Below are positions 2,850 through 40,644 of a stretch of DNA of 40,644 nucleotides, in pieces. The stretch spans positions 1-40,644 of the IMG/VR virus record IMGVR_UViG_2561511241_000001, one strand, 5' to 3'. Made by a program: the position numbers and the translations under genes. The DNA comes from a virus. Lineage: Duplodnaviria > Heunggongvirae > Uroviricota > Caudoviricetes. The notes beneath the pieces are model-generated. The model worked only from the letters and a program-made list of their open reading frames with translations. It did not search any database and was not told the origin of the DNA. Each line of letters begins with the position of its first letter. Within the stretch, counting starts at the first letter, position 1.

Positions 2850-3154
2850 TATTTCACCTCTTGTTGTGACATTGTTGAAAAATGGATACCAGCTCGTTGC
2901 TGCCAGACGATCCAACCGAGAGTCATATCCCATGCCATGTATTCGTTATCGCCGTTTTTTGCTCTCCGACGATCTACTAAGTCACCGAAACGCTTTTCCA
3001 TGAATAATTCATAAGCTTCGCGTTCATCTGGTTCTACTTCCAGAGATAGGAGTGCGATTTCATAAGCACGGCGCTCAATATCGTCTCGCACGTCAAGGCT
3101 GCTGATACGCTCTTTAATTTCTTTAATCAGTTCTTTGTCGGTAAAAGTGGTCAT
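2849..3154 (-). CDS. hypothetical early-left-operon protein
   Basis: 101 aa ORF, translationally coupled at both ends (TAATG overlaps with DUF551 gene and xis); acidic, helical-looking sequence. Confidence 0.5.
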   Translation of the reverse strand: MTTFTDKELIKEIKERISSLDVRDDIERRAYEIALLSLEVEPDEREAYELFMEKRFGDLVDRRRAKNGDNEYMAWDMTLGWIVWQQRAGIHFSTMSQQEVK

Positions 3155-3510
3155 TATGCTCCAGCCTCCGGTGCTTTTGGCATTACTGCCCAGTGAGTGA
3201 TATTGACGTTTTCAAGGTCCCCGACCTGAAATGTCCACTGCCATTCTCCGGTTTCTTTTTGTCCCCAGGTGTACCAGAGAGAACGCCAGCCAATTAGCCA
3301 GCCTTCTCCGTTAGCATCGAATAACAAAACACTTTCATTTGCTGGTGGCAGTTCAGTTGACACTGGTATTACTTTGTTTTCCTGTGCTGCACATTTAGCT
3401 TCAAGCGCATCGAATTTACGCACCAGGTATTCAGCATCTGTTTCATTCACTTTCAGATCTCGCGGTACACATCTCCCACGAAGAAACCCTTCCATTTCGA
3501 AAACATTCAT
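3154..3510 (-). CDS. DUF551-like phage protein
   Basis: Motif KVIPVSTELPPANESVLLFDANGEGWLIGW typical of DUF551 proteins of lambdoid prophages; start ATG overlaps stop of upstream gene (ATGA). Confidence 0.6.
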   Translation of the reverse strand: MNVFEMEGFLRGRCVPRDLKVNETDAEYLVRKFDALEAKCAAQENKVIPVSTELPPANESVLLFDANGEGWLIGWRSLWYTWGQKETGEWQWTFQVGDLENVNITHWAVMPKAPEAGA

Positions 3511-4043
3511 GCGCATTTGCGTAACTCCGATAACTCGTTAAAACGTTCCATAAACATCCCGTAGGCATGGCCCGGTGCCTGTGGAATCACTTTGAACATC
3601 TCTGTTGCCGGGATACCTTCCAGTACAGGCCAGAAAGAGCCATCATCAAGCCCGAGATCGCGGTGTTCGGTTGCCAGCATAATGAGATCGGCATATTTCA
3701 CTGGCGTGCTCATAACAGGAGGTAACCCGTATTTCTCACGGATTACGGCGTCTATTTTTTCTTCCATCCGTTTATAGTCAGGAAGAAGTCGTTTCAGTGG
3801 TGCGGGGATGTCCTGGCAATATGCTTCTGTTGCATCATACATTAAAGCTTCAAAAGCAAATTCCTGTGGCACCAGCTGGCTGCAAAGCACCGCATGTTGG
3901 GCGACACTGTAGAAGTGTGAAAGATGTCCTGCAAAGCGACAGATATTTGAAAGGGAAACCGCGATATCGTTAATAACGATGTCGTCTTTATTTATCCTGT
4001 CATAATAAAAATGCTTCCCGGAAAAAGTTTTAATAAATGACAT
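3507..4043 (-). CDS. HD-domain phosphohydrolase (YfdR-like 5'-deoxynucleotidase family)
   Basis: MSFIKTFSGKHFYYDRINKDD...HAVLCSQLVP...HDATEAYCQDIP closely resembles my recollection of CPS-53 YfdR; start chosen at the second ATG, which has a GGAG RBS 6 nt upstream. Confidence 0.7.
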   Translation of the reverse strand: MSFIKTFSGKHFYYDRINKDDIVINDIAVSLSNICRFAGHLSHFYSVAQHAVLCSQLVPQEFAFEALMYDATEAYCQDIPAPLKRLLPDYKRMEEKIDAVIREKYGLPPVMSTPVKYADLIMLATEHRDLGLDDGSFWPVLEGIPATEMFKVIPQAPGHAYGMFMERFNELSELRKCA

Positions 4044-4684
4044 TTTGTTCTCCACGTATATGCGCTGCACCGCGCTGAATTCGGGTAAAAGGAAGCCCTC
4101 ACCGTCCGGCGATTATTGAGTCAATTACATTTCCATAAATGCCCCCGTAGGGGCGGTTAGTTTCTCCACAAAACAGAGAAGAACACCTGCGGTGGCAGCC
4201 GCCCGGATGGATTGGGTTATGAGCCCGTCGTCCGGTGATGCTCTTCTCTGTTTTGTAAAAAGGACGGTACCAGCCGGAAGCAAGGGTACAAGCTGGTACC
4301 GCCAAGACTACACACAGCATAAAGTTGTGGTGCCGGGCGCCTCCCGGTGCCTGGCGAAGGTTGCACACCAGGCGGGTGGGTATCCACAGAAGGTCGACTG
4401 TCAGCCTCAACCTTTACCCGCGTGCGCTGAGCCGCATTCACCACAACGCTAAGGATTCTCTCTGGTTGAAAATACTTAGCTGTTATGTGCCTGCTTTTAG
4501 CCACATCAGGCGAGGTGGACCTAGTTATTCCCCAACAACAAGGATTTGGTTATTATGTAACCCTCCCCAACAACGATAAGGATTTATATGGAACGATGTG
4601 TAGATAAGTATGAGGAGAGGCATGTGCCGTTAAGACAAAAGCCTCCAGTTCCTCCAAAACCACCCAAGGAAAACTGAGACTAAT

Positions 4685-5179
4685 ATGACCAGAGACGATT
4701 ATAAATTTTATATTCACTACTCTTATGTATTGGAGAAGATGAATTACACGTTGTTAACTCGTATTGATAAATTAATAACGTTGATGTTAATCGTTCTCGG
4801 TTTTTCAGTTTTCGCCCCGTACAGTAATTTATTTATTTTCGGTTTGTTTGTTGCCGTACTTTCGGTTCTTCAGTTGGTCTATCAGTTCGGCCAGGAGGCT
4901 GGGATGTCTAAAGAACAAGCGAGGCATTACAAAAGACTGCTGATTGAGTCTGATACTCTTTCTGAAGATCAGTTGCAAGCTAGGTATTTAAAAATCCAAG
5001 ATACCGATAGTAATCCATGGAAATCACTTGAACGAGCGGCTTTCATTCGGGCCTGCATTTTTGCTGGTGTTCCAACTAAGTACGATCTAACAACCAAAGA
5101 AAAATTTATTGCTTGGTGTGCGGGAGATCTACCTCTAGAGAATGAACTAACGGATATTAATGATGACCAACAAGCATAA
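4685..5179 (+). CDS. two-TM membrane protein, possible superinfection-exclusion (SieB-like) moron
   Basis: 164 aa; hydrophobic segments LITLMLIVLGFSVFAPY and LFIFGLFVAVLSVLQLVY followed by a soluble charged C-terminus; AT-rich; opposite to the leftward early operon; internal in-frame ATGs at codons 19 and 34. Function is inferred from position and topology only. Confidence 0.45.
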   Translation: MTRDDYKFYIHYSYVLEKMNYTLLTRIDKLITLMLIVLGFSVFAPYSNLFIFGLFVAVLSVLQLVYQFGQEAGMSKEQARHYKRLLIESDTLSEDQLQARYLKIQDTDSNPWKSLERAAFIRACIFAGVPTKYDLTTKEKFIAWCAGDLPLENELTDINDDQQA

Positions 5180-5345
5180 TCCAGTTCACGGACATGTACC
5201 TCCGAAGCCGAAACCACCGAAACCGAAGAAATGAGACATAATAGGATTGGATAATGAGTCGACCAATAGAGCCTTTTCATATTCCACCTCGTCCCAGGCC
5301 ACCAGATCCAGGCCCAAAGTGAGGGTTACTGATTTTTAAAGAGCG

Positions 5346-5369
5346 AAGCGTCCGGTAGGGCGCTTTTTT
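5346..5369 (+). terminator. rho-independent terminator ending the rightward sieB-like transcription unit
   Basis: AAGCGTCC-GGTA-GGGCGCTT hairpin (8 bp with one G-U pair) followed by TTTTTTGTTG. Confidence 0.5.
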
Positions 5370-5453
5370 GTTGCTAACGAATCATCCTGGACTTCATATG
5401 CTCCAGGGGGCTACTTCGTGGGCGTCCTGCCTGTTTGTTGTTTCGCTTGGGTA

Positions 5454-5482
5454 CATTATGTATCTCAAAGGTACATTGTCAA
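5454..5482 (-). promoter_or_regulatory. candidate PL (leftward early promoter) with overlapping operator half-sites
   Basis: On the minus strand: TTGACA (5482-5477), 17 bp spacer, ATAATG (5459-5454); GGTACAT operator-like motifs at 5449 and 5470 overlap the -35 and -10 regions. Confidence 0.4.
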
Positions 5483-5484
5483 GT

Positions 5485-5508
5485 ATAAAAAACCTGCCGA
5501 AGCAGGTT
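5485..5508 (-). terminator. rho-independent terminator downstream of cI
   Basis: Minus strand AACCTGC-TTCG-GCAGGTT followed by TTTTTTATACTT, immediately 3' of the cI stop at 5521. Confidence 0.5.
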
Positions 5509-5520
5509 CATAAACATTGA

Positions 5521-6195
5521 TTAGGCTTTGATTTTGTATCTTCTTGGTTTTCCTGAGAAAATCACTGTACCAATTATAGAGCAATTACCGTTGATCTTAA
5601 TGTAAGGCTCAGGCCAGTTTGGGTTTAACGCTTTGAGATAACGCTGTGTCCCATCTTCTATCAACCTTTTGAAGGTGGTTTCACCTGTATCGTGCATCAA
5701 TGCAATAACGTCGTCACCGTGGCAGGCAGGTACTTCAGGATCGACAAAAATCATGTCTCCCGGGCGGTACTCATCAATCATTGAATCACCTATCACCCGC
5801 AAGATATAAGTCATTTCCCCACAGGGGACAGGGCAGGGATACGTTTCTGCTGTGCTCAAATCAACCTCAGAATATCCAACTTCTTTCCATGCTCCGGCCT
5901 GTACCCATGATATGACAGGGACTAATGTGATTTGTTTATTAGTGATTGAAACATCAGGTTTTTTTGTGATGTTCGTTGTCTGGTGTTCTTGATCGAGCCA
6001 TCCCACAGGCAGGTCGAAACATTTTTCGATGTGTCGTGCCATGCTGTCACCGATATTTTTAGTAGCACCATCTCCCATAAACCTGCTGGTCTGGGTTGGC
6101 TCGCGATCAATCATAGTGGCAAAGGAAGAATTCCCGCCAACACCATCTCTCAGTTTTCTGGCGTTAGACCGCCGGATGTCATGGATTGTTTTCAT
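5521..6195 (-). CDS. cI: CI-type prophage repressor (HTH + S24 LexA-like peptidase domain)
   Basis: 224 aa; C-terminal S24 signature (GDSM...K in FKRLIEDG) and N-terminal HTH-like region; divergent from a Cro-like gene with a palindromic operator between them. Confidence 0.85.
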   Translation of the reverse strand: MKTIHDIRRSNARKLRDGVGGNSSFATMIDREPTQTSRFMGDGATKNIGDSMARHIEKCFDLPVGWLDQEHQTTNITKKPDVSITNKQITLVPVISWVQAGAWKEVGYSEVDLSTAETYPCPVPCGEMTYILRVIGDSMIDEYRPGDMIFVDPEVPACHGDDVIALMHDTGETTFKRLIEDGTQRYLKALNPNWPEPYIKINGNCSIIGTVIFSGKPRRYKIKA

Positions 6196-6210
6196 AACAA
6201 AATTAAAACC

Positions 6211-6231
6211 CTTGTACCGTTAAGGTACAAG
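6211..6231. promoter_or_regulatory. OR operator palindrome
   Basis: Perfect inverted repeat CTTGTACC-GTTAA-GGTACAAG between cI and cro; related GGTACA half-sites recur at 6274 and in the PL region. Confidence 0.55.
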
Positions 6232-6235
6232 TATC

Positions 6236-6263
6236 TTGAAGGTTCATTTTAATCATGTAATAT
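6236..6263 (+). promoter_or_regulatory. candidate PR (rightward early promoter)
   Basis: TTGAAG (6236-6241), 16 bp spacer, TAATAT (6258-6263), about 23 bp upstream of the cro-like ATG; directly flanks the operator palindrome. Confidence 0.4.
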
Positions 6264-6285
6264 GTATACCGGAGGTACATATTGT

Positions 6286-6486
6286 ATGAAAGCGTATTGG
6301 GACTCTTTAACCAAAGAACAGCAGGGCGAGTTGGCCGGAAAAGTTGGCTCAACACCTGGCTACTTACGGCTGGTTTTCAATGGCTATAAAAAAGCCAGTT
6401 TTGTGCTGGCTAAAAAACTTGAGCAATGCACGTCAGGTGCAATTACGAAATCTGACTTAAGACCGGATATCTATCCGAAAGATTAG
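6286..6486 (+). CDS. Cro-like small HTH regulator
   Basis: 66 aa from the ATG with GGAGG RBS (MKAYWDSLTKEQQGELAGKVGSTPGYLRLVFNG...); HTH-like; divergent from cI. Confidence 0.6.
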   Translation: MKAYWDSLTKEQQGELAGKVGSTPGYLRLVFNGYKKASFVLAKKLEQCTSGAITKSDLRPDIYPKD

Positions 6487-6517
6487 CAGAACACTTTCAA
6501 TTTTTAACCACAGAACG

Positions 6518-7081
6518 ATGAGGCTAATCGTGGGTAAGCATCACTGGAAAATAGAAAAACAGCCTGAGTGGTACGTGAAAGCTGTCAGAAAAACTATCGC
6601 GGCGTTGCCGGGTGGTTACGCTGAAGCCGCTGACTGGCTGGATGTAACAGAGAACGCTTTATTCAACCGCCTTCGTGCAGATGGCGATCAGATTTTTCCG
6701 CTGAGATGGGCAATGGTTTTACAGCGTGCTGGTGGCACTCACTTCATTGCTGATGCTGTGGCGCAGTCTGCAAATGGCGTATTTGTGTCTCTTCCTGACG
6801 TCGAGGATGTGGATAACGCCGATATTAACCAGCGTCTGCTGGAAGTCATTGAACAGATCGGCAGTTATTCAAAACAGATTCGTTCAGCAATTGAAGACGG
6901 TGTAGTGGAACCGCATGAGAAGACAGCAATTAACGACGAGCTGTACCTCTCAATTTCGAAGCTGCAGGAGCATGCAGCACTGGTCTACAAAATTTTTTGC
7001 ATTTCAGAAAGTAATGACGCCCGCGAGTGTGCAGCTCCGGGCGCCGTGGCGTGTCGTGACTGTGGAGAAACTAACGCATGA
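6518..7081 (+). CDS. hypothetical early regulator in the cII position
   Basis: 187 aa ORF directly after cro; C-terminal Cys cluster ([14 protein letters not shown]); family not confidently recognised. Confidence 0.45.
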
Positions 7082-7416
7082 ACAGTTTAACAACACACTA
7101 CCGTCGCTCGCAACTGATTGCGCTTCCTGTACCGGGTGGAAAAGCGAAGGTGGAGTATTGCTATGCAGTAAATGTACTAGGTGACAGGGAAATTGTAACC
7201 CACAGCTTTGCAGAGTGGGCTGTGGGTGATTTCAACCGGCAGAAGGAGACAGTCCTTTGCGACAAGTTAACCGCTGGTTCAAAGATCACTACGGAGTACC
7301 CGTCAGAGTCATTCGTTGGGAGCCGGAAACACAACGGGTTATCTACCTCCGTGAAGGCTATGAGCATGAGTGCTTCAGCCCGTTCGAACAGTTTCGTCGT
7401 AAATTCAGGGAAATAG
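7078..7416 (+). CDS. hypothetical protein (C-terminal half doubtful)
   Basis: ATGA-coupled to the upstream gene; the N-terminal ~55 aa look protein-like, the S-rich C-terminal half looks like out-of-frame readthrough; an alternative TTG-initiated frame 7257-7436 is described in findings. Confidence 0.3.
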
Positions 7417-7425
7417 AGGTCGGTC

Positions 7426-8367
7426 ATGAGCACTAAATTAACCGGCTATGTATGGGATGGTTGCGCTGCGTCAGGCATGAAATTATCCAGCGTGGCAATT
7501 ATGGCCCGCCTGGCTGATTTCAGTAATGACGAAGGTGTGTGCTGGCCATCAATTGAAACCATTGCCCGCCAGATTGGCGCGGGGATGAGTACCGTCAGAA
7601 CGGCTATCGCACGGCTGGAAGCAGAAGGCTGGTTAACGCGTAAGGCGCGTCGCCAGGGTAACCGCAATGCGTCGAATGTTTATCAGCTTAACGTTGCGAA
7701 GCTTCAGGCTGCGGCATTTTCTCAACTGTCAGATTCTGACCCGTCAAAATCTGACGCATCAAAATCTGACCCGTCAAAATTTGATGCGTCGAAATCTGGC
7801 AAAAAAGCGGGTTTTCACCCGTCAGAATCTGGCGGGGATCCGTCAGTAAAATCAAAACATGATCCGTCAGATAAAAAAACTTCTCGTCCGGACGCTTCGC
7901 AACCGGACACGCAGACGGCTGAACAGGATTTTTTAACTCGCCATCCTGATGCGGTTGTATTCAGCCCTAAAAAGCGCCAGTGGGGAACGCAGGATGATTT
8001 GACCTGTGCACAGTGGCTCTGGAAAAAAATCATTGCCCTGTACGAGCAGGCCGCCGAATGTGACGGCGAGGTGGTTCGTCCCAAAGAACCGAACTGGACA
8101 GCATGGGCAAACGAAATTCGCCTGATGTGTGTGCAGGATGGTCGTACTCATAAACAAATCTGCGAGATGTACAGCCGCGTCAGCCGCGATCCGTTCTGGT
8201 GCCGTAACGTGCTCAGCCCGTCGAAGCTGCGGGAAAAATGGGATGAGCTTTCCCTGCGCTTATCGCCGTCCGTCAGCACGTACACCGAAAAACGCGAAGA
8301 CCCGTACTTCAAATCCAGTTACGACAACGTGGACTACAGCCAGATCCCGGCAGGATTCAGGGGGTGA
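7426..8367 (+). CDS. replication initiator / replisome organiser with internal iterons
   Basis: 313 aa; N-terminal winged-HTH-like region (VCWPSIETIARQIGAGMSTVRTAIARLEAEGWL); central low-complexity SDPSKSDASKSDPSKFDASKS encoded by the iteron array; O-like position after the immunity region. Confidence 0.75.
   Translation: MSTKLTGYVWDGCAASGMKLSSVAIMARLADFSNDEGVCWPSIETIARQIGAGMSTVRTAIARLEAEGWLTRKARRQGNRNASNVYQLNVAKLQAAAFSQLSDSDPSKSDASKSDPSKFDASKSGKKAGFHPSESGGDPSVKSKHDPSDKKTSRPDASQPDTQTAEQDFLTRHPDAVVFSPKKRQWGTQDDLTCAQWLWKKIIALYEQAAECDGEVVRPKEPNWTAWANEIRLMCVQDGRTHKQICEMYSRVSRDPFWCRNVLSPSKLREKWDELSLRLSPSVSTYTEKREDPYFKSSYDNVDYSQIPAGFRG
7728..7875. repeat. iteron array (candidate replication origin) inside the replication gene
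   Basis: About 7 direct repeats of CCGTCA(A/G)AAT(C/T)TGA-like units (ACCCGTCAAAATCTGAC, GCATCAAAATCTGAC, CCGTCAAAATTTGATG, CGTCGAAATCTGG, CCGTCAGAATCTGG, CCGTCAGTAAAATC, CCGTCAGATAAAAA). Confidence 0.6.
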
Positions 8368-8369
8368 TT

Positions 8370-8858
8370 ATGAGTCTTTTGAATGAAGTTCAGAAATTCA
8401 TTGAAGCCCATCCGGGGTGTACTTCCGGAGACATTGCGGATGCTTTTGCAGGTTACTCACGGCAGCGCGTTCTGCAGTCAGCAAGCAAGTTACGTCATAG
8501 TGGGCGTGTGGCTCACCGTTGTGAAGGGGATACACGCAGACATTTCCCGCGCCAGACAAAGATATCGCCGGAGGCGGAACGGCAACCAGTTCGTGAAACC
8601 AGACCTGTGCGCAATTTCTATGTCGGCACTAACGACCCGCGGGTGATTTTGTGCCTGGCCCGCCAGGCGGAAGAACTGGAGTCCAGGGGCTTATTTCGTC
8701 GTGCTGCAACCGTGTGGATGGCGGCATTCCGTGAAAGCCACTCCCAGCTAGAACGAAACAATTTTCTGGCGCGTCGTGAGCGGTGCTTACGGAAAAGCAG
8801 CAAGCGCGCTGCATCGGGTGAAGAGTGGTATCTGTCAGGGAATTACGTGGGGGCTTAA
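8370..8858 (+). CDS. PerC-like transcriptional regulator
   Basis: C-terminal GLFRRAATVWMAAFRESHSQLERNNFLARRERC resembles the PerC family; N-terminal wHTH-like; ATG at 8370 with G-rich RBS. Confidence 0.5.
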   Translation: MSLLNEVQKFIEAHPGCTSGDIADAFAGYSRQRVLQSASKLRHSGRVAHRCEGDTRRHFPRQTKISPEAERQPVRETRPVRNFYVGTNDPRVILCLARQAEELESRGLFRRAATVWMAAFRESHSQLERNNFLARRERCLRKSSKRAASGEEWYLSGNYVGA

Positions 8859-9184
8859 TGACGACGTTAACTCAATGCCAGCAGCAGGTGCTGGATATGC
8901 TGATTTCTTATCAGAAAGAACGTGGCTTCCCGCCAACCAATCAGGAGGTGGCAACCATGCTGGGATACCGTTCGGTGAATGCAGCGGTGGAGCATCTTCG
9001 TGCGCTGGAGAAAAAAGGCGTCATCACGATAAAGCGTGGCGTGGCCCGGGGGATAACGCTTCATACCGCGGTGAAGGACGACGACAGCGAGGCGGTCGGG
9101 ATTATCCGCTCACTGCTTGCCGGTGAGGAAAACGCCAGGCTGCGTGCAGCCCACTGGTTACATGAGAGGGGCCTGAAAGTATGA
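8858..9184 (+). CDS. LexA N-terminal DNA-binding domain protein (no peptidase domain)
   Basis: MTTLTQCQQQVLDMLISYQKERGFPPTNQEVATMLGYRSVNAAVEHLRALEKKGVI matches the LexA winged-HTH (LexA_DNA_bind) pattern; only 108 aa, so it lacks the S24 domain; TAATG coupling to the upstream gene. Confidence 0.55.
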   Translation: MTTLTQCQQQVLDMLISYQKERGFPPTNQEVATMLGYRSVNAAVEHLRALEKKGVITIKRGVARGITLHTAVKDDDSEAVGIIRSLLAGEENARLRAAHWLHERGLKV

Positions 9185-9570
9185 AGCTTATTCTGCCTTT
9201 TCCGCCCAGCGTCAACACGTACTGGCGACACCCCAACAAAGGGGCGTTTGCTGGTAAGAGCCTGATAAGCGCGGCGGGGCGAAAATTCCAGAGCGCGGCG
9301 TGCGCAGCAATAGTTGAGCAGTTACGTCGTCTGCCGAAACCAACGTCGGCACCTGCTGCAGTGGAGATCGTGTTGTTTCCACCGGATAACCGGATCCGCG
9401 ATCTGGACAACTATAACAAGGCGCTGTTTGACGCCCTGACCCACGCGGGTGTGTGGGAAGACGACAGTCAGGTGAAAAGAATGCTGGTGGAGTGGGGACC
9501 GGTTGTCCCGGAAGGGAAGGTCGAGATCACTATCAGTAAGTACGAGAAAACGGCGGGTGCAGCCGCCTGA
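9181..9570 (+). CDS. rusA: Holliday junction resolvase RusA
   Basis: LPFPPSVNTYWRH...RDLDNYNKALFDALTHAGVWEDDSQV matches RusA family motifs; nin-region position. Confidence 0.85.
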   Translation: MKLILPFPPSVNTYWRHPNKGAFAGKSLISAAGRKFQSAACAAIVEQLRRLPKPTSAPAAVEIVLFPPDNRIRDLDNYNKALFDALTHAGVWEDDSQVKRMLVEWGPVVPEGKVEITISKYEKTAGAAA

Positions 9571-9589
9571 TTAAGAGGAGAAACGAAGT

Positions 9590-10387
9590 ATGAATAATCT
9601 GATGGTCATTGATGGTATTGAAGTTCGTCGTGATGCTTATGGGCGTTACAGCCTGAACGATCTGCACAGGGCTGCCGGTTCTCTGGATAAGCATAAGCCT
9701 GCATACTGGCTCCGCAATGAGCAAACTGAACGTTTAATAAGCGAGTTGCAGATTTGCAACTCGGTCAATATAGAGCCAGTTAACGTTATTCGTGGCGGAA
9801 ATAACCAGGGGACGTATGTCTGCAAAGAACTGGTGTATGCCTATGCAATGTGGATCAGCCCGTCATTCCATCTGAAGGTGATCCGTACTTTCGATATGGT
9901 AACCAGCACACCGGAAAAATTATCCGGGCAGGCTGCTGACAAGATGCAGGCTGGCGTGATCCTGCTGGACTTTATGCGCCGGGAATTAAACCTGTCTAAC
10001 TCATCAGTGCTTGGAGCCTGTCAGAAGCTTCAGGAGGCTGTTGGCTTACCGAATCTGGCACCGCGCTATGCCATTGATGCTCCTGCTGACGCGCCTGATG
10101 GCTCAAGTCGCCCGACACTGTCACTGAGTGCACTGCTGAAACAGTATGGTATCCGCCTTACGGCTAATCAGGCATATCACCAGATGGCGAAGCTGGGGAT
10201 CGTCGAACAGCGCGAACGATACAGCCGTACAGCGATTAACAACATCAAAAAATTCTGGTCGCTAACGGCGAAAGGCTGCATGTTCGGTAAGAACATCACC
10301 AGTCCAGCAAATCCGCGCGAGACGCAGCCGCACTTCTTCGAATCCCGATTCCCTGAGCTGTTAAAGCTGCTCGATACCGTTCATTGA
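9590..10387 (+). CDS. KilA-N domain protein
   Basis: N-terminus MVIDGIEVRRDAYGRYSLNDLHRAAGSLDKHKPAYWLRNEQTERLISEL is the KilA-N pattern. Confidence 0.65.
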   Translation: MNNLMVIDGIEVRRDAYGRYSLNDLHRAAGSLDKHKPAYWLRNEQTERLISELQICNSVNIEPVNVIRGGNNQGTYVCKELVYAYAMWISPSFHLKVIRTFDMVTSTPEKLSGQAADKMQAGVILLDFMRRELNLSNSSVLGACQKLQEAVGLPNLAPRYAIDAPADAPDGSSRPTLSLSALLKQYGIRLTANQAYHQMAKLGIVEQRERYSRTAINNIKKFWSLTAKGCMFGKNITSPANPRETQPHFFESRFPELLKLLDTVH

Positions 10388-11785: not shown

Positions 11786-12751
11786 TCAGAATCGCCCTTT
11801 TATTGCTAAATTACGATAATAAACACCTAATGCAGTAAGTCGGCATCCAGTTGAATTTATCGCAGCATAGTACATATGTTCAGTATCAACCGGCTCAACC
11901 AGTCCGTGGCGGTTACATTTTTGTAGATTTTGAAAAATTGATACATTTTCATCAATCGGTGATTCGGAAGTTGGTTCAAAGCTAGGATCTAAATGGAATA
12001 CATGTGTAGCTGTTGGGAACCATACGGGCAATTTGCGAAGAGTATCCAAAGACACTCTTGGTCCTACCTCTCTCAGAACAACAAATCGAGAAACATTTGT
12101 TTTAAAGACTGGGCGCTGATCCCACGCCCCCAATGCTTGATCCACAAAGCTATACAGACTACTTGGAGTAATATAACCTAATATATTAGCTCCTGCGCCA
12201 TACAAAGCTTCGACCATTAATGAAGTAAATACTCCACCATCATTAACTTCTTTGGCATACTCATCTCGTCTACATGCAGTAAGGATGGTAGAGCCATCTG
12301 CAAGTACAGTTTCTCCTCCTTTTAGCATTCTTTCCTGGCCAGCGGCCCCAGCCTGACAGCAGTCGAGAATAATAATTTTATTGCGTATGTTAGTTGCTTT
12401 ATTAGCCCAAACCATAACATCACTTATTCTTATGCCATTACTTGATCTTGGCGAAAAGTCATGTGGAATCAACATTCCTTCATCAATGTTATTATCAAAA
12501 TATCCATGTCCAGCAAAGTAAAATAATGCAACATCACACTCTCCAGAAAAAAGATTCTGAATTTCATATTCAAGGAAATCTTTGTTGAGGGGGGTTGCAC
12601 TACAGTGTGTAAGTGTTCTAGCCTCGAAATTAGGCCTCCCATCGGCGTGTCTAGATAATGCTTCTGCCATTTTTGCAGCATCATTTTCACATCCGCTGAG
12701 AGCATCTAATTCAGCATACTCATTGATCCCAATAAATAGTGCTTTTTTCAT
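11786..12751 (-). CDS. caspase-like cysteine protease (peptidase C14/CHAT-like) with ~100 aa C-terminal extension
   Basis: 321 aa from MKKALFIGINEY (AGGAG RBS 7 nt upstream, overlapping the TIR gene stop); caspase-fold signatures ALFIGINEYA, FYFAGHGY (His82) and IIILDCCQAG (Cys131/132); visibly AT-rich. Confidence 0.75.
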   Translation of the reverse strand: MKKALFIGINEYAELDALSGCENDAAKMAEALSRHADGRPNFEARTLTHCSATPLNKDFLEYEIQNLFSGECDVALFYFAGHGYFDNNIDEGMLIPHDFSPRSSNGIRISDVMVWANKATNIRNKIIILDCCQAGAAGQERMLKGGETVLADGSTILTACRRDEYAKEVNDGGVFTSLMVEALYGAGANILGYITPSSLYSFVDQALGAWDQRPVFKTNVSRFVVLREVGPRVSLDTLRKLPVWFPTATHVFHLDPSFEPTSESPIDENVSIFQNLQKCNRHGLVEPVDTEHMYYAAINSTGCRLTALGVYYRNLAIKGRF

Positions 12752-12761
12752 ATGGAAGCTC

Positions 12762-13163
12762 CTAAGCCAGCTCACGAATGGCAGAAACGATGCTTTCTGT
12801 ATTCCACTTGACGATTTTGTGAGCGGCTTGCTTAACTTTCATAGACGTACGCTCGGAGCCCCAAGGCTCAATGGCAATAATTGGCTTTCTATATTCTTGA
12901 GCTATTCGGATCTCTGCATCAATCCATTTGCTGTAGCTGGCATATACACCAGCCAAAATAATTACAACACTTGATGGTGCCATTTGTGATCTTATAGCAG
13001 AGTAAAGTGCAAAATCATCTTGGGCACCAATTATTGGATCAACTCTGGGTACCGAGTAGTTCTTAAAGTTGAAATACCCACGATTCTTGAGAAGAGCCAC
13101 AAGCTGTTCATAAGTGTTTGAATATTTCCAAGAGTGACTAATAAATAGATTAAAAGTTCTCAT
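12762..13163 (-). CDS. TIR-like domain protein (ThsB/DUF1863-like)
   Basis: 133 aa; N-terminal FNLFISHSWKYS (TIR-like beta-A motif), WIDAE (W80-x3-E84, candidate catalytic Glu); GGAGAG RBS; first gene of a two-gene operon with the caspase-like gene. Confidence 0.7.
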   Translation of the reverse strand: MRTFNLFISHSWKYSNTYEQLVALLKNRGYFNFKNYSVPRVDPIIGAQDDFALYSAIRSQMAPSSVVIILAGVYASYSKWIDAEIRIAQEYRKPIIAIEPWGSERTSMKVKQAAHKIVKWNTESIVSAIRELA

Positions 13164-14810: not shown

Positions 14811-15437
14811 TCAGTTGTCAAATGAATATACGTTAAAGGTATATGTCGACATAATTTCACCAAGTACCTCAATACATATACTTTTTTTATGAAAGATACT
14901 GGGGAAGGAACTTAGCTCTTCAAGGCATTTCACATAAGTGCTGATATCACTTGCATCACGTTCAAGGAATTTCACTTGGCCAAAAGAAGGAGTATTAATC
15001 CTAGTTCTTTGCTGGATTATATGGATAAAATGTGTAGTTGGTGAAACTATTACTCTTGAAATATCGGAAATGATGTCTTCTTGAACTTGCCGATAAAGTA
15101 AATCCTTTGGGTAATGGTGTTTGATCTCGATGGTTGCAACATTGCCATTATGTTCAGACGTTAATATCGACTGGTTATAAAGTGATATGTCAACAGCGCC
15201 GATACCGAGTTTTGGATGCTCACTTAAAGCAGTTAGTGTGCTGATTTGATTGAGAATAACAACTAACTCATCACGTATTTGAGTTTCATGTTTGCGATTG
15301 TAGAAGTAGCAATTCAGTTCATTTAACTTTTTATGCATCCTATCGTGACTAATTGCTTCGATCAGTAAATCCTGAATCATACTTTTCTCTAGGTAATCCG
15401 AACGGTTGTAAGTGACAGTATTGTGCTGGCATGTCAT
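14811..15437 (-). CDS. hypothetical protein (AT-rich cargo, second gene of two-gene module)
   Basis: 208 aa ORF, visibly AT-rich, opposite strand to flanking phage genes; no family recognised; alternative start at MIQDLL (15380). Confidence 0.5.
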   Translation of the reverse strand: MTCQHNTVTYNRSDYLEKSMIQDLLIEAISHDRMHKKLNELNCYFYNRKHETQIRDELVVILNQISTLTALSEHPKLGIGAVDISLYNQSILTSEHNGNVATIEIKHHYPKDLLYRQVQEDIISDISRVIVSPTTHFIHIIQQRTRINTPSFGQVKFLERDASDISTYVKCLEELSSFPSIFHKKSICIEVLGEIMSTYTFNVYSFDN

Positions 15438-15480: not shown

Positions 15481-15816
15481 TCATCGATAGAAAAACTTTA
15501 CGGCCCACTCGTAAACCGCTTTGTAAATCGGTTCATGGTAAATACTATCGATACTATTCAGATGTGCGATCATCGCCTCCACAGTTGTAGTGGTTGTTTC
15601 TAATATTTCGATTATTGCAGGGCGGTCATCATCTTCATCGAAGTATTCGAACAGCAGTACAGGTTTACCATGCCATTCAGCATCTGAGACTCTAAGGTTA
15701 CAACTACCGCTCAACTCAAAGTGAATTTTGTAATTACCTTCTACAGAATGGCCTACGGGGAAAAAGCATAGGGTGTCATCTTTGTTTAAAAGCCATTCCC
15801 ATTCATAACTATTCAT
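15481..15816 (-). CDS. hypothetical protein (AT-rich cargo, first gene of two-gene module)
   Basis: 111 aa from MNSYEWEWL (AGGAG RBS 7 nt upstream); acidic patch FEYFDEDDDRP; no family recognised. Confidence 0.5.
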   Translation of the reverse strand: MNSYEWEWLLNKDDTLCFFPVGHSVEGNYKIHFELSGSCNLRVSDAEWHGKPVLLFEYFDEDDDRPAIIEILETTTTTVEAMIAHLNSIDSIYHEPIYKAVYEWAVKFFYR

Positions 15817-24141: not shown

Positions 24142-25630
24142 AAGCTTTAACACCATTCCGTCGAATACGCTGGTTCCGCTGTTTTATGCGGAAATGGATA
24201 ACCAGGCGGCGAATACTGCACAGGACAGCGGGGCATCGTTGCTGATTGGTCACGCCAATAACGGTGCAGAAATTGTTGCCAACAGTCTGGTGCTGATGCC
24301 GTCGGCAGACTATGCACGCCAGATTTGTGGTGCGGGAAGTCAGCTGGCGCGTATGGTCGAGGCTTATCGCCAGACCGACCCGTTTGGCGAGCTGTATGTG
24401 ATTGCCGTTCCGGAAGCCACAGGCGCGGCGGCAACGGTTACGCTGACAGTGACCGGGGCGGCAACCGAAACCGGCACGGTGAATGTTTATGTGGGACGTA
24501 CCCGCGTGCAGGCACCGGTGACCAACGGCGATAACGTCACGACGATTGCCAGCAGTATCAAAGATGCCATTAATGCCGTTCCGGCCCTGCCGTTTACGGC
24601 CTCATCTTCGGCAGGCGTGGTCACGCTGACCGCGCGTCATAAGGGGCTTTGCGGGAATGAAATTCCTGTCAGCCTCAATTACTACGGCTTTGGTGGGGGC
24701 GAAGTGCTGCCAGCGGGCGTACAGATTGCTGTGGCGACGGGGAGCGCCGGAACGGGCGCTCCGGTTCTCACCGGCGCGGTGGCTGCAATGGCGGATGAGC
24801 CGTTTGATTATATTGGCCTGCCGTTCAACGACACGGCCTCCGTTAACACGCTGGTGACAGAGATGAACGATACCAGCGGTCGCTGGAGCTATGCGCGTCA
24901 GCTGTATGGTCATGTGTATACGGCAAAGATCGGCACGCTGTCAGAACTGGTGAACGCAGGTGACCAGTTTAACCAGCAGCACATTACCCTGGCGGGATAC
25001 GAAAAAGAGACCCAGACGCCTGCCGACGAGCTGGCGGCAAGCCGTACCGCCCGCGCAGCGGTGTTTATTCGCAACGATCCGGCACGTCCCACGCAGACCG
25101 GTGAGCTGGTGGGTATGCTGCCTGCGCCGAAGGGGAAACGGTTCACGATGACCGAACAACAGACCCTGCTGTCTCATGGCGTGGCAACGGCGTATGTCGA
25201 AAGCGGGGTGCTGCGCATTCAGCGTGATGTCACCACGTACAGGAAAAACGCTTACGGTGTTGCGGATAACAGCTACCTCGACAGCGAGACGCTGCATACC
25301 AGCGCGTATGTGCTGCGCAAACTGAAATCCGTCATTACCAGTAAGTACGGGCGTCACAAGCTTGCCAGCGACGGTACCCGCTTTGGTCCCGGTCAGGCGA
25401 TTGTCACACCGGCGGTGATCAAAGGGGAACTGCTGGCAACCTACCGTCAGCTTGAGCGTGCGGGGATCGTGGAAAACTACGAACTGTTTAAGCAGTACCT
25501 GGTTGTGGAGCGTGATGCCAGCGATCCGAACCGCCTGAACACGCTGTTCCCGCCTGACTATGTTAACCAGTTGCGTGTTTTTGCCGTGGTTAACCAGTTC
25601 CGTCTTCAGTATTCAGAGGAGTCTGCATAA
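24134..25630 (+). CDS. contractile tail sheath protein (Mu gpL-like)
   Basis: 498 aa; size, composition and position (sheath-tube-chaperone-tape measure) typical of Mu/SfV-type myovirus tails. Confidence 0.85.
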   Translation: MTISFNTIPSNTLVPLFYAEMDNQAANTAQDSGASLLIGHANNGAEIVANSLVLMPSADYARQICGAGSQLARMVEAYRQTDPFGELYVIAVPEATGAAATVTLTVTGAATETGTVNVYVGRTRVQAPVTNGDNVTTIASSIKDAINAVPALPFTASSSAGVVTLTARHKGLCGNEIPVSLNYYGFGGGEVLPAGVQIAVATGSAGTGAPVLTGAVAAMADEPFDYIGLPFNDTASVNTLVTEMNDTSGRWSYARQLYGHVYTAKIGTLSELVNAGDQFNQQHITLAGYEKETQTPADELAASRTARAAVFIRNDPARPTQTGELVGMLPAPKGKRFTMTEQQTLLSHGVATAYVESGVLRIQRDVTTYRKNAYGVADNSYLDSETLHTSAYVLRKLKSVITSKYGRHKLASDGTRFGPGQAIVTPAVIKGELLATYRQLERAGIVENYELFKQYLVVERDASDPNRLNTLFPPDYVNQLRVFAVVNQFRLQYSEESA

Positions 25631-25986
25631 TGGCCCGTATCGGGGGAACCTGTTATTTCAAAATTGACGGTCAGCAGCTATCGCTGACCGGCGGCATTGA
25701 GGTGCCCATGAACAGGACGGTCAATGATGACATCATCGGCCTGGACGGTTCAGTGGACCGCAAGGAAACTCACCGTGCGCCTTATGTCAAAGGGACATTC
25801 AAGGTGCCGAAGAATTTTCCGGTGAGTAAAATCACCTCGTCTGATGAGATGACCATCACTGCCGAGCTGGCGAACGGTCAGGTCTATGTATTGTCGTCCG
25901 CCTGGCTGCACGGCGAAGCGAACCATAATGCCGAAGAAGGCACGGTTGATCTTGAGTTCCACGGTGAAGAAGGGGATTACCAGTAA
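25630..25986 (+). CDS. tail tube protein
   Basis: 118 aa, ATGA-coupled to the sheath gene; Mu gpM-like position. Confidence 0.75.
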   Translation: MARIGGTCYFKIDGQQLSLTGGIEVPMNRTVNDDIIGLDGSVDRKETHRAPYVKGTFKVPKNFPVSKITSSDEMTITAELANGQVYVLSSAWLHGEANHNAEEGTVDLEFHGEEGDYQ

Positions 25987-36810: not shown

Positions 36811-39621
36811 TTATTTTTTTAGAGATTGCATTCGTTCATTGAATATGTCCAATGTGTCTTGAAATTCAACAAAGCCTCTATCCTTTATAAGGCTTTTAAT
36901 TAAGTTAGGAAAATCACTTTCTACACCAGCTGTAATGAAATCTAACTCGCCTAATTTATTCGGGATGTTTTCAGAAACAAATTTGTTAATAACCTCAAGA
37001 AATTGATCAGGCATGGCACATCCGCTTGCGACTAAATGCAAACATTCCATAATATCGCTTACTGTTGCCAGTGGTAGGTTTAAAATATTACTGTTAATAA
37101 ACTTGTCTATAATGTCAACGACCTCAGGAGAGCCAATCCTTTTGATGTTCAATAATAAACTCTTAGTGATGGATCTTTTCCACTTATCATCAAATAATTG
37201 TATTTTTGTTAACGCTAATGTTAATAGTTCAGTGTTTTTGTATTCGTAATTATGATTCTCTGATAATATGTAAATGTTTCGTAAGATATTGGAGTTAATT
37301 ACATGCTGGTCATAACCATTTAACTCTCCTGTATTGATTTTTATAAGTATTACATCCAGGATTTTTAACATATCATCATGGGATTTTTGATACAAAAACT
37401 CATTCACAGCTAGAAGATTATGTATGTTTTCATAAATATTTATGTTATTAGTTCTGCCTTCTAACAAAGGAAGCAAACCATTTATTATTTTCTTTAACTG
37501 GTTTGAACTCCACGGAACACATCCTAATATAATCAATAAATTATTGGTCCATCGATCTATTGAAGTGGTATGAATAAAATTTTTATTTTTCAACCTAATC
37601 AGGTTGCATATGTTTTCGAGAGAGTTGAGTAAATATTTCTTAATATGGTGAACTTCTCTTTTGTCAAGTTTGCTGGTGCTGATTATTATTTTGTCTTTTA
37701 TTACCTTACTTAAAAATTTTTTGAGTTTTTCTGTCTCGCAGTATTTTATTAACATAAATAGATCGATTCTATTAACATAGAATATCTCTTCGCATAGATA
37801 GTGTTCGAGGCTACTAAGAATATTAAATTCGAAAAATTGTTTAACCTCTTTATATTCTTCAATTAAAATTTCGTTGCCTAAAATGAAATACACATAAGGG
37901 TACAGTTTCGCTCTTGTTTTAAATTCATCATTGGAAAATGCTATTCCACCACTCTTTCTTATTTGTGAGTACCCTAAATTCTTCTTCGATTCAACGTCAA
38001 ATCGATAGTAAGCTTTGTATATTTCATTAAATTCAAGCATCTTTACTAATTCTTGTAGCTCACTTTGCACCCCCCGTGGAAAATCAATTATTTTACTTTT
38101 AAACTCAAATGGAGTATGGCTTTCCATTATTGATTTACAATCTTCATCAATGTCCTTACCGTTACAGTGTAAATCCGACTTCAACATCCTGTAAGCATAA
38201 TCAAAATTAGACATGTGAATGGTGGCGAGAATATAGTTTCTCTCATTAAGATGAAGCTTTACTTTCGAAATAAGAATATCGAGAAGTTTGCCATATTCCT
38301 TGTTAATAAGAAGTATTTCAGCATTATCCTTTGAATAAGCGAAAGAAATCTTATTGTATAGCTCAGACTCTAATTCTGAAGAACTAATCACCTCATACAG
38401 TTTCGAGTCATAACTAACTGTATTTATAAATGCCTTTTCCAAAATAGATGAGAATGTCTTTTTTAAGTGAGTATTTTTACTCAAAATGTCATTAAGGTAT
38501 ATGCTATTTATTTTCCTGCTATACTCGTCATAATCAGTCGTCAAAATATTATTGTGGGAGGTTAGTTTAACCCCAGACTTATCATAATCAATGGTACTAT
38601 TAGTTAATTTTTTACTGATCTGCTCAGGGAGCAATACTTTGTATTGTGTTAATGCTTTTAGTTTGCTATCAACATATTTATTTATTTTTTTTGTTACAAT
38701 ACATTGAATATCATTCTTCAATTTATTTTTATCAAAATCAGACATTCTCAGGTCATCTTCTATTTTTTTTACCTTTGACTCAGTATAGATCAGGGTCCTC
38801 TTTATAAACTCATCTTGGTTTTTAACAAGCTTGAAATCACTGAAAAATTTTGAATAAAGATCATGATAGCTAATGTCAGTATTCATCGGTGTCAACAAGG
38901 ATATCCCATGATTTCTTAAGTAAAGAGCCTGGGCTGCATCATGATTTTTCTGGAGCAAATATTTTCTTGGTGTTGCTTTTGATATAGTTGTAACCCATGA
39001 AACAATCTGTTTTAAATCATAATCACTATAAGAGTATCCTAAAAACACAACAGTGTTTGTTGAGAATATTCCTTTTATAAAATTTTCGATAAGTGGAAAA
39101 TTTTGGCTGTACTGTAAGTAATCATCCTCTTTAAAAACAAAATTATTCTGTCGAAAATCCCCATGCATCTTTATAATTTTCTTGTCCAAATGACTTTGTG
39201 CCAGGTCCACGTCAGAACTAACTAAATCATAAGCCAATCCTATGTCTTGTGCAGTTTTTTCAAGCAAACTATCCCAGTTGGTTGTAATTATATAGTGGGG
39301 GTTTAATTCAAATAGCATCTTATGAAAAAGACTTGGTTTCAAATCTCTAATTATTGATTTGACTTTTTTAACATAAGAGTTTTGTCCGTATTGAAGAAAG
39401 TAAAGTTGGGCTATTTTTAAATAATCATTTTCTTCAGACAATCCTAAGTCGTCTTTTAGCTCATTTATTAACTCCCTCCAGGTTGGTATTTTTATTAATT
39501 CCGTTTCGCTGAATTTAGAAAAACCAGCACCAATAAAAAGAACTAACTTATTATCTTGACTGGCATTCAATATTTCGTTCAAGTCATATTCAGAAAAAGA
39601 AAGTGGATTTAAATTTATCAT
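36811..39621 (-). CDS. large SIR2-domain protein (DSR-like candidate antiphage NADase)
   Basis: 936 aa; N-terminal SIR2 signatures LVLFIGAGFS (GAGxS), ITTNWD (TTN-aromatic-D) and KMHGDF (catalytic His); ~700 aa C-terminal region of unknown fold; very AT-rich; opposite strand, between pin and attR. Confidence 0.75.
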   Translation of the reverse strand: MINLNPLSFSEYDLNEILNASQDNKLVLFIGAGFSKFSETELIKIPTWRELINELKDDLGLSEENDYLKIAQLYFLQYGQNSYVKKVKSIIRDLKPSLFHKMLFELNPHYIITTNWDSLLEKTAQDIGLAYDLVSSDVDLAQSHLDKKIIKMHGDFRQNNFVFKEDDYLQYSQNFPLIENFIKGIFSTNTVVFLGYSYSDYDLKQIVSWVTTISKATPRKYLLQKNHDAAQALYLRNHGISLLTPMNTDISYHDLYSKFFSDFKLVKNQDEFIKRTLIYTESKVKKIEDDLRMSDFDKNKLKNDIQCIVTKKINKYVDSKLKALTQYKVLLPEQISKKLTNSTIDYDKSGVKLTSHNNILTTDYDEYSRKINSIYLNDILSKNTHLKKTFSSILEKAFINTVSYDSKLYEVISSSELESELYNKISFAYSKDNAEILLINKEYGKLLDILISKVKLHLNERNYILATIHMSNFDYAYRMLKSDLHCNGKDIDEDCKSIMESHTPFEFKSKIIDFPRGVQSELQELVKMLEFNEIYKAYYRFDVESKKNLGYSQIRKSGGIAFSNDEFKTRAKLYPYVYFILGNEILIEEYKEVKQFFEFNILSSLEHYLCEEIFYVNRIDLFMLIKYCETEKLKKFLSKVIKDKIIISTSKLDKREVHHIKKYLLNSLENICNLIRLKNKNFIHTTSIDRWTNNLLIILGCVPWSSNQLKKIINGLLPLLEGRTNNINIYENIHNLLAVNEFLYQKSHDDMLKILDVILIKINTGELNGYDQHVINSNILRNIYILSENHNYEYKNTELLTLALTKIQLFDDKWKRSITKSLLLNIKRIGSPEVVDIIDKFINSNILNLPLATVSDIMECLHLVASGCAMPDQFLEVINKFVSENIPNKLGELDFITAGVESDFPNLIKSLIKDRGFVEFQDTLDIFNERMQSLKK

Positions 39622-40061
39622 TTTATAACTCTATGCATGTCTTAAAATTCATTGCTTCCATCAATATTAGCATAATTAAGTATTTCAAATCATAACGATG
39701 CTTAATTTATCATTATAATCCATTAACTTGTTCCAAGTACACCGTCTGCTAGTAATTTCTCCATTAACTGACTTATAAAGTGGGGGACTTCCGTCTCTCT
39801 CTCATAACAGACATTCACTACAGTTATGGCAGAAAGGTATGCAAGCCGGGTGTGGGAAAGTATGAAAGAAAAGAAGACTGCTGCGCCGTTTGTCGTCACA
39901 TTTATCTTCATTGGCTATGCAAGTCGTAATACAAGGTGGGACAAAACTGAGACACATAAGGCCTCGCAATGGCTTGCAAGGCTTTACATGTTTTGATGTG
40001 GCGGGACGTGTGAGCGCAGTGTTGATGGGGTAATGCTTTGAATTAGAATCGGATTCTTATA

Positions 40062-40117
40062 ATTCGTAATGCGAAGGTCGTAGGTTCGACTCCTATTATC
40101 GGCACCATTTAAATCAA
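40062..40117. repeat. attR core (56 bp direct repeat, partial tRNA-Thr copy)
   Basis: Identical to 1399-1454. Confidence 0.85.
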
Positions 40118-40233
40118 GTAGTTACCCCATATTTAAATACACCACGTTTCCTCCTGTGCCGTATTTGTGCCATTGTAACCCTGGCAATTCATCAAAATAC
40201 TGTTCTGACATCAGGCAATGCAGGTGCAGACAT

Positions 40234-40644
40234 TTAAGCCAATTGCTGCCGCCATTCCTTGACGTGGTCAATCAGGGCGCGGAGCTTTGGTGCAATATTG
40301 CGACGCTGTGGGAAATACAGATAGAAGCCTGGAAATTGTGGAAGAAAGTCATCAAGCAGCGATACAAGCTTACCGCTTTCAATATATGGCCTGAAAGTTT
40401 CCTGAGTGGCAATTGTTATTCCTCCGCCGGCAAGAGCCAGCCTCAACATCAGACGCAGATCATTAGTCGTAATCTGCGGTTCAATCGCAAGGTCGAAAGT
40501 TCTCCCGTTTTCTTCAAATGGCCAGCGATAAGGCGCAACCTCCGGGGACTGACGCCAGCCGATACACTTATGGGTATTTCCCCCGGAGGCGAGAAAGCGC
40601 TCTCCACGCCCGGCCGCAAGGATCAGGACGACGGGGGCAGGCAT
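40234..40644 (-). CDS. LysR-family transcriptional regulator, C-terminal part (5' end outside window)
   Basis: C-terminus PGFYLYFPQRRNIAPKLRALIDHVKEW is the LysR effector-domain tail; the ORF runs to the window edge. Confidence 0.55.
   Translation of the reverse strand: MPAPVVLILAAGRGERFLASGGNTHKCIGWRQSPEVAPYRWPFEENGRTFDLAIEPQITTNDLRLMLRLALAGGGITIATQETFRPYIESGKLVSLLDDFLPQFPGFYLYFPQRRNIAPKLRALIDHVKEWRQQLA

Follow-up and report, generated by a model that had tools for sequence, protein, structure and literature searches.

What kind of protein is encoded by the last gene of an e14-like prophage in the porcine enterotoxigenic Escherichia coli UMNK88, and is it likely to serve in defence against other phages? 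We examined a stretch of 40,644 nucleotides (the window) that corresponds to ~293.5-334.1 kb of the UMNK88 chromosome, NC_017641, and that includes a gene named by RefSeq as UMNK88_RS01645 (protein WP_000609167.1, "SIR2 family protein"; herein the SIR2 gene). An original prediction, made from the sequence of the window without database searches, had described a minus-strand open reading frame (ORF) of 936 amino acids (aa) at 36811-39621 with an N-terminal SIR2 signature for binding of nicotinamide adenine dinucleotide (NAD), and read the product as a DSR-like NAD-depleting defence protein with ~700 aa of unassigned C-terminal sequence. The coordinates proved exact, the ORF opens with ATG, and the three SIR2 motifs were located as GAGFS (aa 31-35), TTNWD (aa 113-117) and KMHGDF (aa 151-156). 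The analysis described below makes it quite probable that the gene represents a single-protein antiphage system of the DSR2 (defence-associated sirtuin) type, which is carried as prophage cargo and is presumably expressed in the lysogen.

Homology of WP_000609167.1 to DSR2 of Bacillus subtilis

The positions of the gene and of its domains are given below. The domain boundaries are approximate, as they were carried over by alignment from the published limits of B. subtilis DSR2 (BsDSR2), i.e., SIR2 1-298, middle domain (MID) 299-547 and C-terminal domain (CTD) 548-1005 (PMC11850899).

36811..39621, minus strand: probable DSR2-type defence-associated sirtuin gene, complete, 936 aa (ORF, RefSeq annotation, full-length homologues of 920-950 aa, ratio of nonsynonymous to synonymous substitution, dN/dS)
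38812..39621, minus strand: predicted SIR2 NADase effector domain, aa 1-270
38032..38811, minus strand: middle (adaptor) domain MID, aa 271-530 (alignment to BsDSR2 MID 299-547, hhalign, secondary structure of the model)
36814..38031, minus strand: predicted C-terminal alpha-solenoid (HEAT-like) sensor domain CTD, aa 531-936
36811-36813, minus strand: stop codon of the SIR2 gene

The Pfam scan of WP_000609167.1 returned SIR2_2 alone, at aa 111-242 and far beyond chance (E 3.4e-24, 86 bits, cut-off 24.5), and the best match in a single-protein phmmer search of the PDB sequences was BsDSR2 (E 6e-35), confined to aa 14-273 and followed by ThsA and KomC. An alignment of 46 sequences of the WP_000609167.1 family (A1), used as a profile, matched BsDSR2 over positions 13-740 against DSR2 30-780 (E 8e-61). 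The profile-profile comparison by hhalign of A1 22-754 with positions 7-762 of A2, an alignment of 43 BsDSR2-family members, gave 100 % probability and E 2e-62 over 687 aligned columns; a control free of the SIR2 domain, A1 against BsDSR2 303-779, gave 85 % probability and E 6.5e-6 over 388 columns. Because both the SIR2-free and the profile-profile alignments match BsDSR2, the ~700 aa previously left unassigned can be assigned, and are homologous to the MID and the alpha-solenoid C-terminal sensor of DSR2.

The predicted fold of WP_000609167.1 matched that of BsDSR2 over its full length (template-modelling score 0.62). In the model, the MID consists of a bundle of helices, a long linker helix and two beta-hairpins, at aa 342-355 and aa 399-410. 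Within the CTD, the sequence profiles could be aligned to the BsDSR2 family over residues 531-754, and residues 755-936 matched in fold alone. Comparison by hidden Markov model (HMM) and structure, proposed in the original prediction as a check, accordingly matched DSR2 from the SIR2 domain across MID to halfway along the CTD, with agreement in fold to the end of the protein. The corresponding assay for DSR1 gave no match to NCBIfam NF041818 or PADLOC PDLC04167 at E ≤ 1.

A joint alignment of both families placed the NAD pocket and catalytic residues S51, W59, N133, D135 and H171 of BsDSR2 at S35, W48, N115, D117 and H153 of WP_000609167.1, and each of the five is conserved in 46/46 family members. 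Mutation of BsDSR2 W59, N133, D135 or H171 impairs or abolishes DSR2 activity or defence; S51 is a conserved pocket residue (PMC11850899). As judged from this alignment, the NAD/catalytic pocket of WP_000609167.1 is intact. Three residues of the BsDSR2 oligomer interfaces were also kept, with Y260 found as Y234 and Y552 as Y535 (both 46/46) and N202 as N180 (43/46), and these positions are well conserved inside the BsDSR2 family also. The homology to DSR2 supports the earlier reading of a DSR-like defence protein; its NADase activity and its role in defence we infer by analogy with BsDSR2.

Position within the prophage and distribution of the family

The features that define the site of the SIR2 gene are as follows.

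1369-1444: tRNA-Thr (thrW)
1399-1454: attL, partner repeat of attR (exact repeat search; the integrase adjoins attL)
36036..36590, plus strand: pinE site-specific invertase, the left neighbour, bounding the pin-attR cargo slot (RefSeq annotation)
39622..40061: non-coding stretch between the start of the SIR2 gene and attR, 440 bp, G+C content (GC) 0.39 (sequence)
40062..40117, plus strand: attR, 56-bp direct repeat of the thrW 3' end and downstream bases (exact repeat search)

The 56-bp repeats bound an e14-like, contractile-tailed prophage of 38.7 kb. Since attR at 40062-40117 pairs with attL, the SIR2 gene is the last gene within the prophage; it lies 440 bp from attR and beyond the end of pinE at 36590, in full agreement with the site between Pin and attR that had been claimed for it, and is directed opposite to the late operon. 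The gene is as AT-rich as described, with a GC of 0.303 compared to 0.513 in the remaining prophage. The 440 bp stretch is presumed to hold the promoter of the SIR2 gene; a sigma-70 promoter and terminator scan of 36500-40200 found 19 promoter-like sites where 18.3 were expected from shuffles, and no promoter was callable. A 62-aa ORF upstream on the same strand (39723-39911) was considered as a partner and set aside, being absent from RefSeq and unlike the sole sequence with which it was compared, a 61-aa ORF that lies upstream of the homologue in Neisseria.

The cargo at the right end varies among related e14-like prophages. The same SIR2 gene was seen in E. coli EH09-18-41 (locus 3092-9922) at the right end of a related e14-like prophage, preceded by an acyltransferase gene, IS3 and a LEM-3-like GIY-YIG gene. 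The locus of E. coli EJN001 (6001-6884), likewise from an e14-like prophage, was rejected as an example of alternative cargo in the slot: it carries an IS1-associated deletion, the SIR2 gene is missing, and the 131 bp that remain adjoin IS1.

The database search recovered 1047 relatives, including a coherent full-length set of 920-950 aa that ranged from 84 % down to ~28 % identity and came from Enterobacterales, Aeromonas, Acinetobacter, Neisseria, Pasteurellaceae and Gilliamella; the named full-length relatives were all labelled "SIR2 family protein" or "hypothetical protein". The gene is rare in E. coli, where it was intact in 14 of 5426 complete genomes and is absent from strain MG1655, and a tblastn search of sequenced phages gave two weak SIR2-only matches and no full-length copy in that phage collection. 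Six homologue loci were sampled.

Enterobacter homologue: lambdoid prophage, between P and DinI/RusA
Citrobacter homologue: within the conjugation genes of an integrative and conjugative element (ICE)
Erwinia homologue: ICE, adjoining a TraI_2 relaxase and an integrase
Avibacterium homologue: beside an insertion sequence and GmrSD
Acinetobacter homologue: three-integrase island with AbiJ/AAA_15 and SMC/PHP genes
Neisseria homologue: plain chromosome

These six neighbourhoods have no gene in common. This is a single-gene system that moves as cargo.

The region of aa 271-936 was searched alone against 1.84 billion representatives and gave 84 proteins at E ≤ 1e-3. The full-length matches were 890-985 aa long, with the match starting near residue 270-290. 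When ten of the matches were scanned, shorter or offset ones included, five retained a SIR2 domain, either whole or cut short at its N-terminus, and the other five had no Pfam domain. Among the 84 representatives, which were SIR2-fused or truncated fragments, none had the MID-CTD sensor fused to another effector. Mean pairwise identity within the WP_000609167.1 family was 0.58 for SIR2 vs 0.29-0.33 for MID and CTD, and the BsDSR2 family showed the same contrast; this is the signature expected of a conserved effector joined to a fast-evolving sensor.

Two E. coli alleles differed by 11 synonymous and 8 nonsynonymous codons (crude dN/dS ~0.17), and the SIR2 gene is under purifying selection. In 7/7 sampled copies of the gene (the window gene, the second E. 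coli allele and five homologues) the GC was 0.24-0.31, with flanks of 0.33-0.58. It is low in every copy whatever the flanking GC, and so characterises the family as a whole and is not merely a mark of recent import into E. coli. One relative, P0308, was examined as a sequence bridge to the BsDSR2 family and was discarded, as it is a fringe member of the WP_000609167.1 clade that matches BsDSR2 in SIR2 only.

Other inserts were seen elsewhere in the prophage. At window 11786-13163, minus strand, the gene for a ThsB-like TIR protein of 133 aa (E 3.9e-18 to Pfam ThsB_TIR) lies directly upstream of one for a 321-aa caspase-family protein (E 1.2e-17 to Peptidase_C14); the pair forms a counter-oriented insert between antiterminator Q and the holin, with a GC dip to 0.41, and looks like a second defence cargo of the prophage. 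We take this arrangement to resemble the TIR + caspase-like "type IV Thoeris". Two hypothetical genes on the opposite strand, 14811-15380 (189 aa) and 15481-15816 (111 aa), both minus, lie between the lysis cassette and HNH/terminase (GC 0.40) and gave no Pfam or PADLOC match. Between the genes for the tape measure and for DNA circularisation, and opposite to them in orientation, lies a gene (28262-28708, minus) for an OB-fold protein of 148 aa (E 8.5e-19 to Pfam tRNA_anti-like), with a local GC dip to 0.43 and no PADLOC match; it may be a moron. The segment 34566-36590 is an invertible tail-fibre segment with two opposed tail-fibre-assembly genes and, adjoining pinE, a fragment of a gp53-like fibre gene with a frameshift; it resembles the host-range switches of e14, Mu and P1. 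Directly beyond attR (40234-40644 and onward) is a LysR-family gene, adjoining paoD, that is annotated without its N-terminus, and because this N-terminus is missing beside paoD, the chromosome right of thrW has been remodelled. That region is the one where CP4-6 is integrated in K-12.

Proposed mechanism and competing readings

By analogy with BsDSR2, the lysogen would make WP_000609167.1 as a homotetramer that is auto-inhibited and built around a core of SIR2 domains. Upon infection by another phage, a newly made phage protein would bind the sensor (CTD)/MID pocket, and the conformational change brought about by binding would switch on the SIR2 domains; hydrolysis of NAD+ by the active SIR2 would then leave the infected cell no longer able to support phage growth (abortive infection). 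Tetramer formation and direct sensing of a phage protein, like NADase output and the defence phenotype, are expected here from the properties of BsDSR2. The trigger of BsDSR2 is the monomeric tail tube protein, co-expression of the two kills E. coli, and both the tube protein and DSAD1 contribute strands that pair with those of the BsDSR2 MID. Given how far the final ~180 aa, and a large part of the sensor, have diverged, the epitope recognised by WP_000609167.1 probably differs from that of BsDSR2.

Several observations weigh against this assignment. Overall identity between WP_000609167.1 and BsDSR2 is 17-18 %, and the final ~180 aa have no detectable sequence similarity to the BsDSR2 family, even profile to profile. 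The model is less confident inside the SIR2 domain (aa 160-220, predicted local distance difference test 53-75). The BsDSR2 loop1 (W143-Y148), which relays activation to SIR2, is not conserved in the WP_000609167.1 family, and neither are several of the BsDSR2 residues that form tetramer hydrogen bonds. PADLOC (PADLOC-DB 2.0.0) matched the protein to ThsA SIR2 models, PDC-S25, PDC-S65 and others, with no model named Dsr2 among them, and the NCBIfam Dsr2 model NF041819 (~1215 positions) gave 67.7 bits against a cut-off of 1400, over aa 14-211, i.e., the SIR2 region only. Literature searches by accession and for homologues of DSR2 in Gram-negative bacteria or prophages found no functional data for WP_000609167.1 or its clade. 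Finally, the carrier prophage makes its own tail tube, and self-activation at induction must be avoided somehow.

The two library results were judged with BsDSR2 as positive control, and it gave no match at E ≤ 1 to the Dsr2 models of PADLOC-DB 2.0.0 or NCBIfam. These models were therefore set aside as uninformative tests of membership: since authentic BsDSR2 itself fails them, they cover another lineage and cannot decide who belongs to that of BsDSR2. The name and length of NF041819 suggest that its probable basis was the DSR2 of Gao et al. 2020, and Garb et al. place BsDSR2 in the DSR2 family as Gao et al. had delimited it; the DSR2 label is evidently architectural and does not denote a tight sequence family. 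As BsDSR2 matches no Dsr2-named model in either library, tools that use these models likely miss DSR2-lineage proteins or leave them as "SIR2 family protein".

A variant of the mechanism proposed above, differing from it in the trigger step, would retain the DSR2 architecture and NADase output and respond to a capsid, portal, replication or other phage protein, or to the tube of a different tail type. We regard this as a real possibility, if well short of the favoured one. It would fit the poor conservation of the sensor half (~0.29-0.33 mean identity), the residues 755-936 that cannot be aligned to the BsDSR2 family, a CTD ~50 aa shorter than that of BsDSR2 (406 vs 458 aa), loop1 relay residues that differ from those of BsDSR2, and the contractile tail of the carrier, whose 118-aa tail tube protein, encoded at window 25630-25986, showed no tube similarity beyond E 0.67 when compared with the PDB sequences, the SPR tail tube included. 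The unalignable C-terminal residues, the shorter CTD, the different relay loop and the myovirus-type carrier with its unmatched tube protein suggest a specificity other than for the D1 domain of the SPR tube. Arguing the other way, BsDSR2, the sole characterised relative, senses the tail tube protein, beta-hairpins like those by which the BsDSR2 MID pairs with the strands of the tube are predicted in WP_000609167.1 too, and no data point to any trigger besides the tail tube. We tentatively suggest that the gammaproteobacterial clade could be a DSR2 lineage with its sensor remodelled for another phage protein, or for a tail-tube class other than that of the D1 domain of the siphovirus SPR tube. 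In that case the SIR2 protein, being carried by a contractile-tailed prophage, would also have to discriminate against the structural proteins of its carrier.

Readings that abandon DSR2-type defence altogether fared less well. Carriage on prophages and ICEs, together with the intrinsic toxicity of NAD+ depletion seen when BsDSR2 and tube protein kill E. coli, would suit a non-defence prophage role, be it an addiction or host-killing toxin or a shutdown of host metabolism in the prophage's own lytic cycle; yet the SIR2 gene runs against the late operon and is at the far end of the element, it has no adjoining antitoxin-like gene or conserved partner, homologues occur outside mobile elements too and beside other defence genes, and its closest characterised relative is a defence protein, all of which makes such a role improbable. 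That WP_000609167.1 is an effector like Thoeris ThsA, activated by a small molecule, with the signal perhaps made by the prophage's own ThsB-like TIR protein, is less probable still: the ThsA profile was matched at its SIR2 part only (positions 11-229 of 478), the Pfam scan showed no SLOG or other ligand-binding domain, the TIR gene is ~24 kb distant and paired with a caspase gene, the sampled homologues have no TIR neighbour, and the C-terminus is a DSR2 MID-CTD. We give equally little credence to a conventional regulatory sirtuin (protein deacylase or ADP-ribosyltransferase) or to an inactive gene in decay: the domain belongs to the SIR2_2 / ThsA / DSR2 type, the ORF is intact in those 14 complete E. 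coli genomes, and the family stays full-length to ~28 % identity with the low crude dN/dS (~0.17) reported above. BsDSR2, moreover, has its acyl-lysine channel blocked and is an NAD+ hydrolase (PMC10981675).

Significance and comparison with known systems

Mechanistic knowledge of DSR2 has so far come from one Bacillus protein and one phage family. The present family is an uncharacterised gammaproteobacterial clade within the known DSR2 kind, with no new defence principle, and DSR2-like prophage cargo will not surprise a specialist; it does reveal a structurally complete DSR2 lineage circulating on prophages and ICEs of Enterobacterales, Aeromonas, Acinetobacter, Neisseria and Pasteurellaceae, and an annotation gap, as both HMM libraries tested give no qualifying DSR2 match for WP_000609167.1 or for genuine BsDSR2. 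It would offer a native E. coli model for the coliphage trigger, for the tolerance of a prophage to its own defence cargo and for sensor diversification. If the sensor has indeed been remodelled, then trigger specificity, self-tolerance and anti-DSR proteins could be mapped with standard coliphage collections.

The closest counterpart is BsDSR2 (B. subtilis 29R; Garb et al. 2022; cryo-electron microscopy structures 8K98, 8WKS, 8WYB and others), which is likewise a single gene with the order SIR2, MID and alpha-solenoid CTD and is of similar size (1005 aa vs 936 aa). The SIR2 domains are ~28 % identical, the S, W, N, D and H of the pocket are the same, and both families combine a conserved effector with a variable sensor; WP_000609167.1 differs in belonging to a separate gammaproteobacterial clade and in being carried by a contractile-tailed E. 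coli prophage. The protein modelled by NF041819 shares the N-terminal SIR2, with nothing matched beyond that domain. Thoeris ThsA is a SIR2-SLOG NADase, whereas WP_000609167.1 has no SLOG and no adjoining ThsB and has the DSR2 MID-CTD instead. Two other SIR2 systems were considered and rejected: Avs5 (AVAST type 5, SIR2-STAND), as WP_000609167.1 lacks a Walker A motif and the Pfam scan showed no NTPase domain, and SIR2-HerA (Nezha), as no HerA partner gene was found in the window or at the six sampled homologue loci.

With respect to its site, the SIR2 gene is best compared with mcrA of the K-12 cryptic prophage e14. The original prediction had drawn this parallel, and the order pinE-mcrA-attR is indeed present in K-12 e14. 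Both genes occupy the same slot, which lies at the right end of an e14-type prophage from pinE to attR, and both are regarded as defence cargo; McrA is a type IV methyl-directed restriction enzyme, unrelated in protein and in mechanism. The pin-attR end of e14-type prophages is a slot for the exchange of defence genes, holding mcrA in K-12 and a DSR2-like gene in UMNK88.

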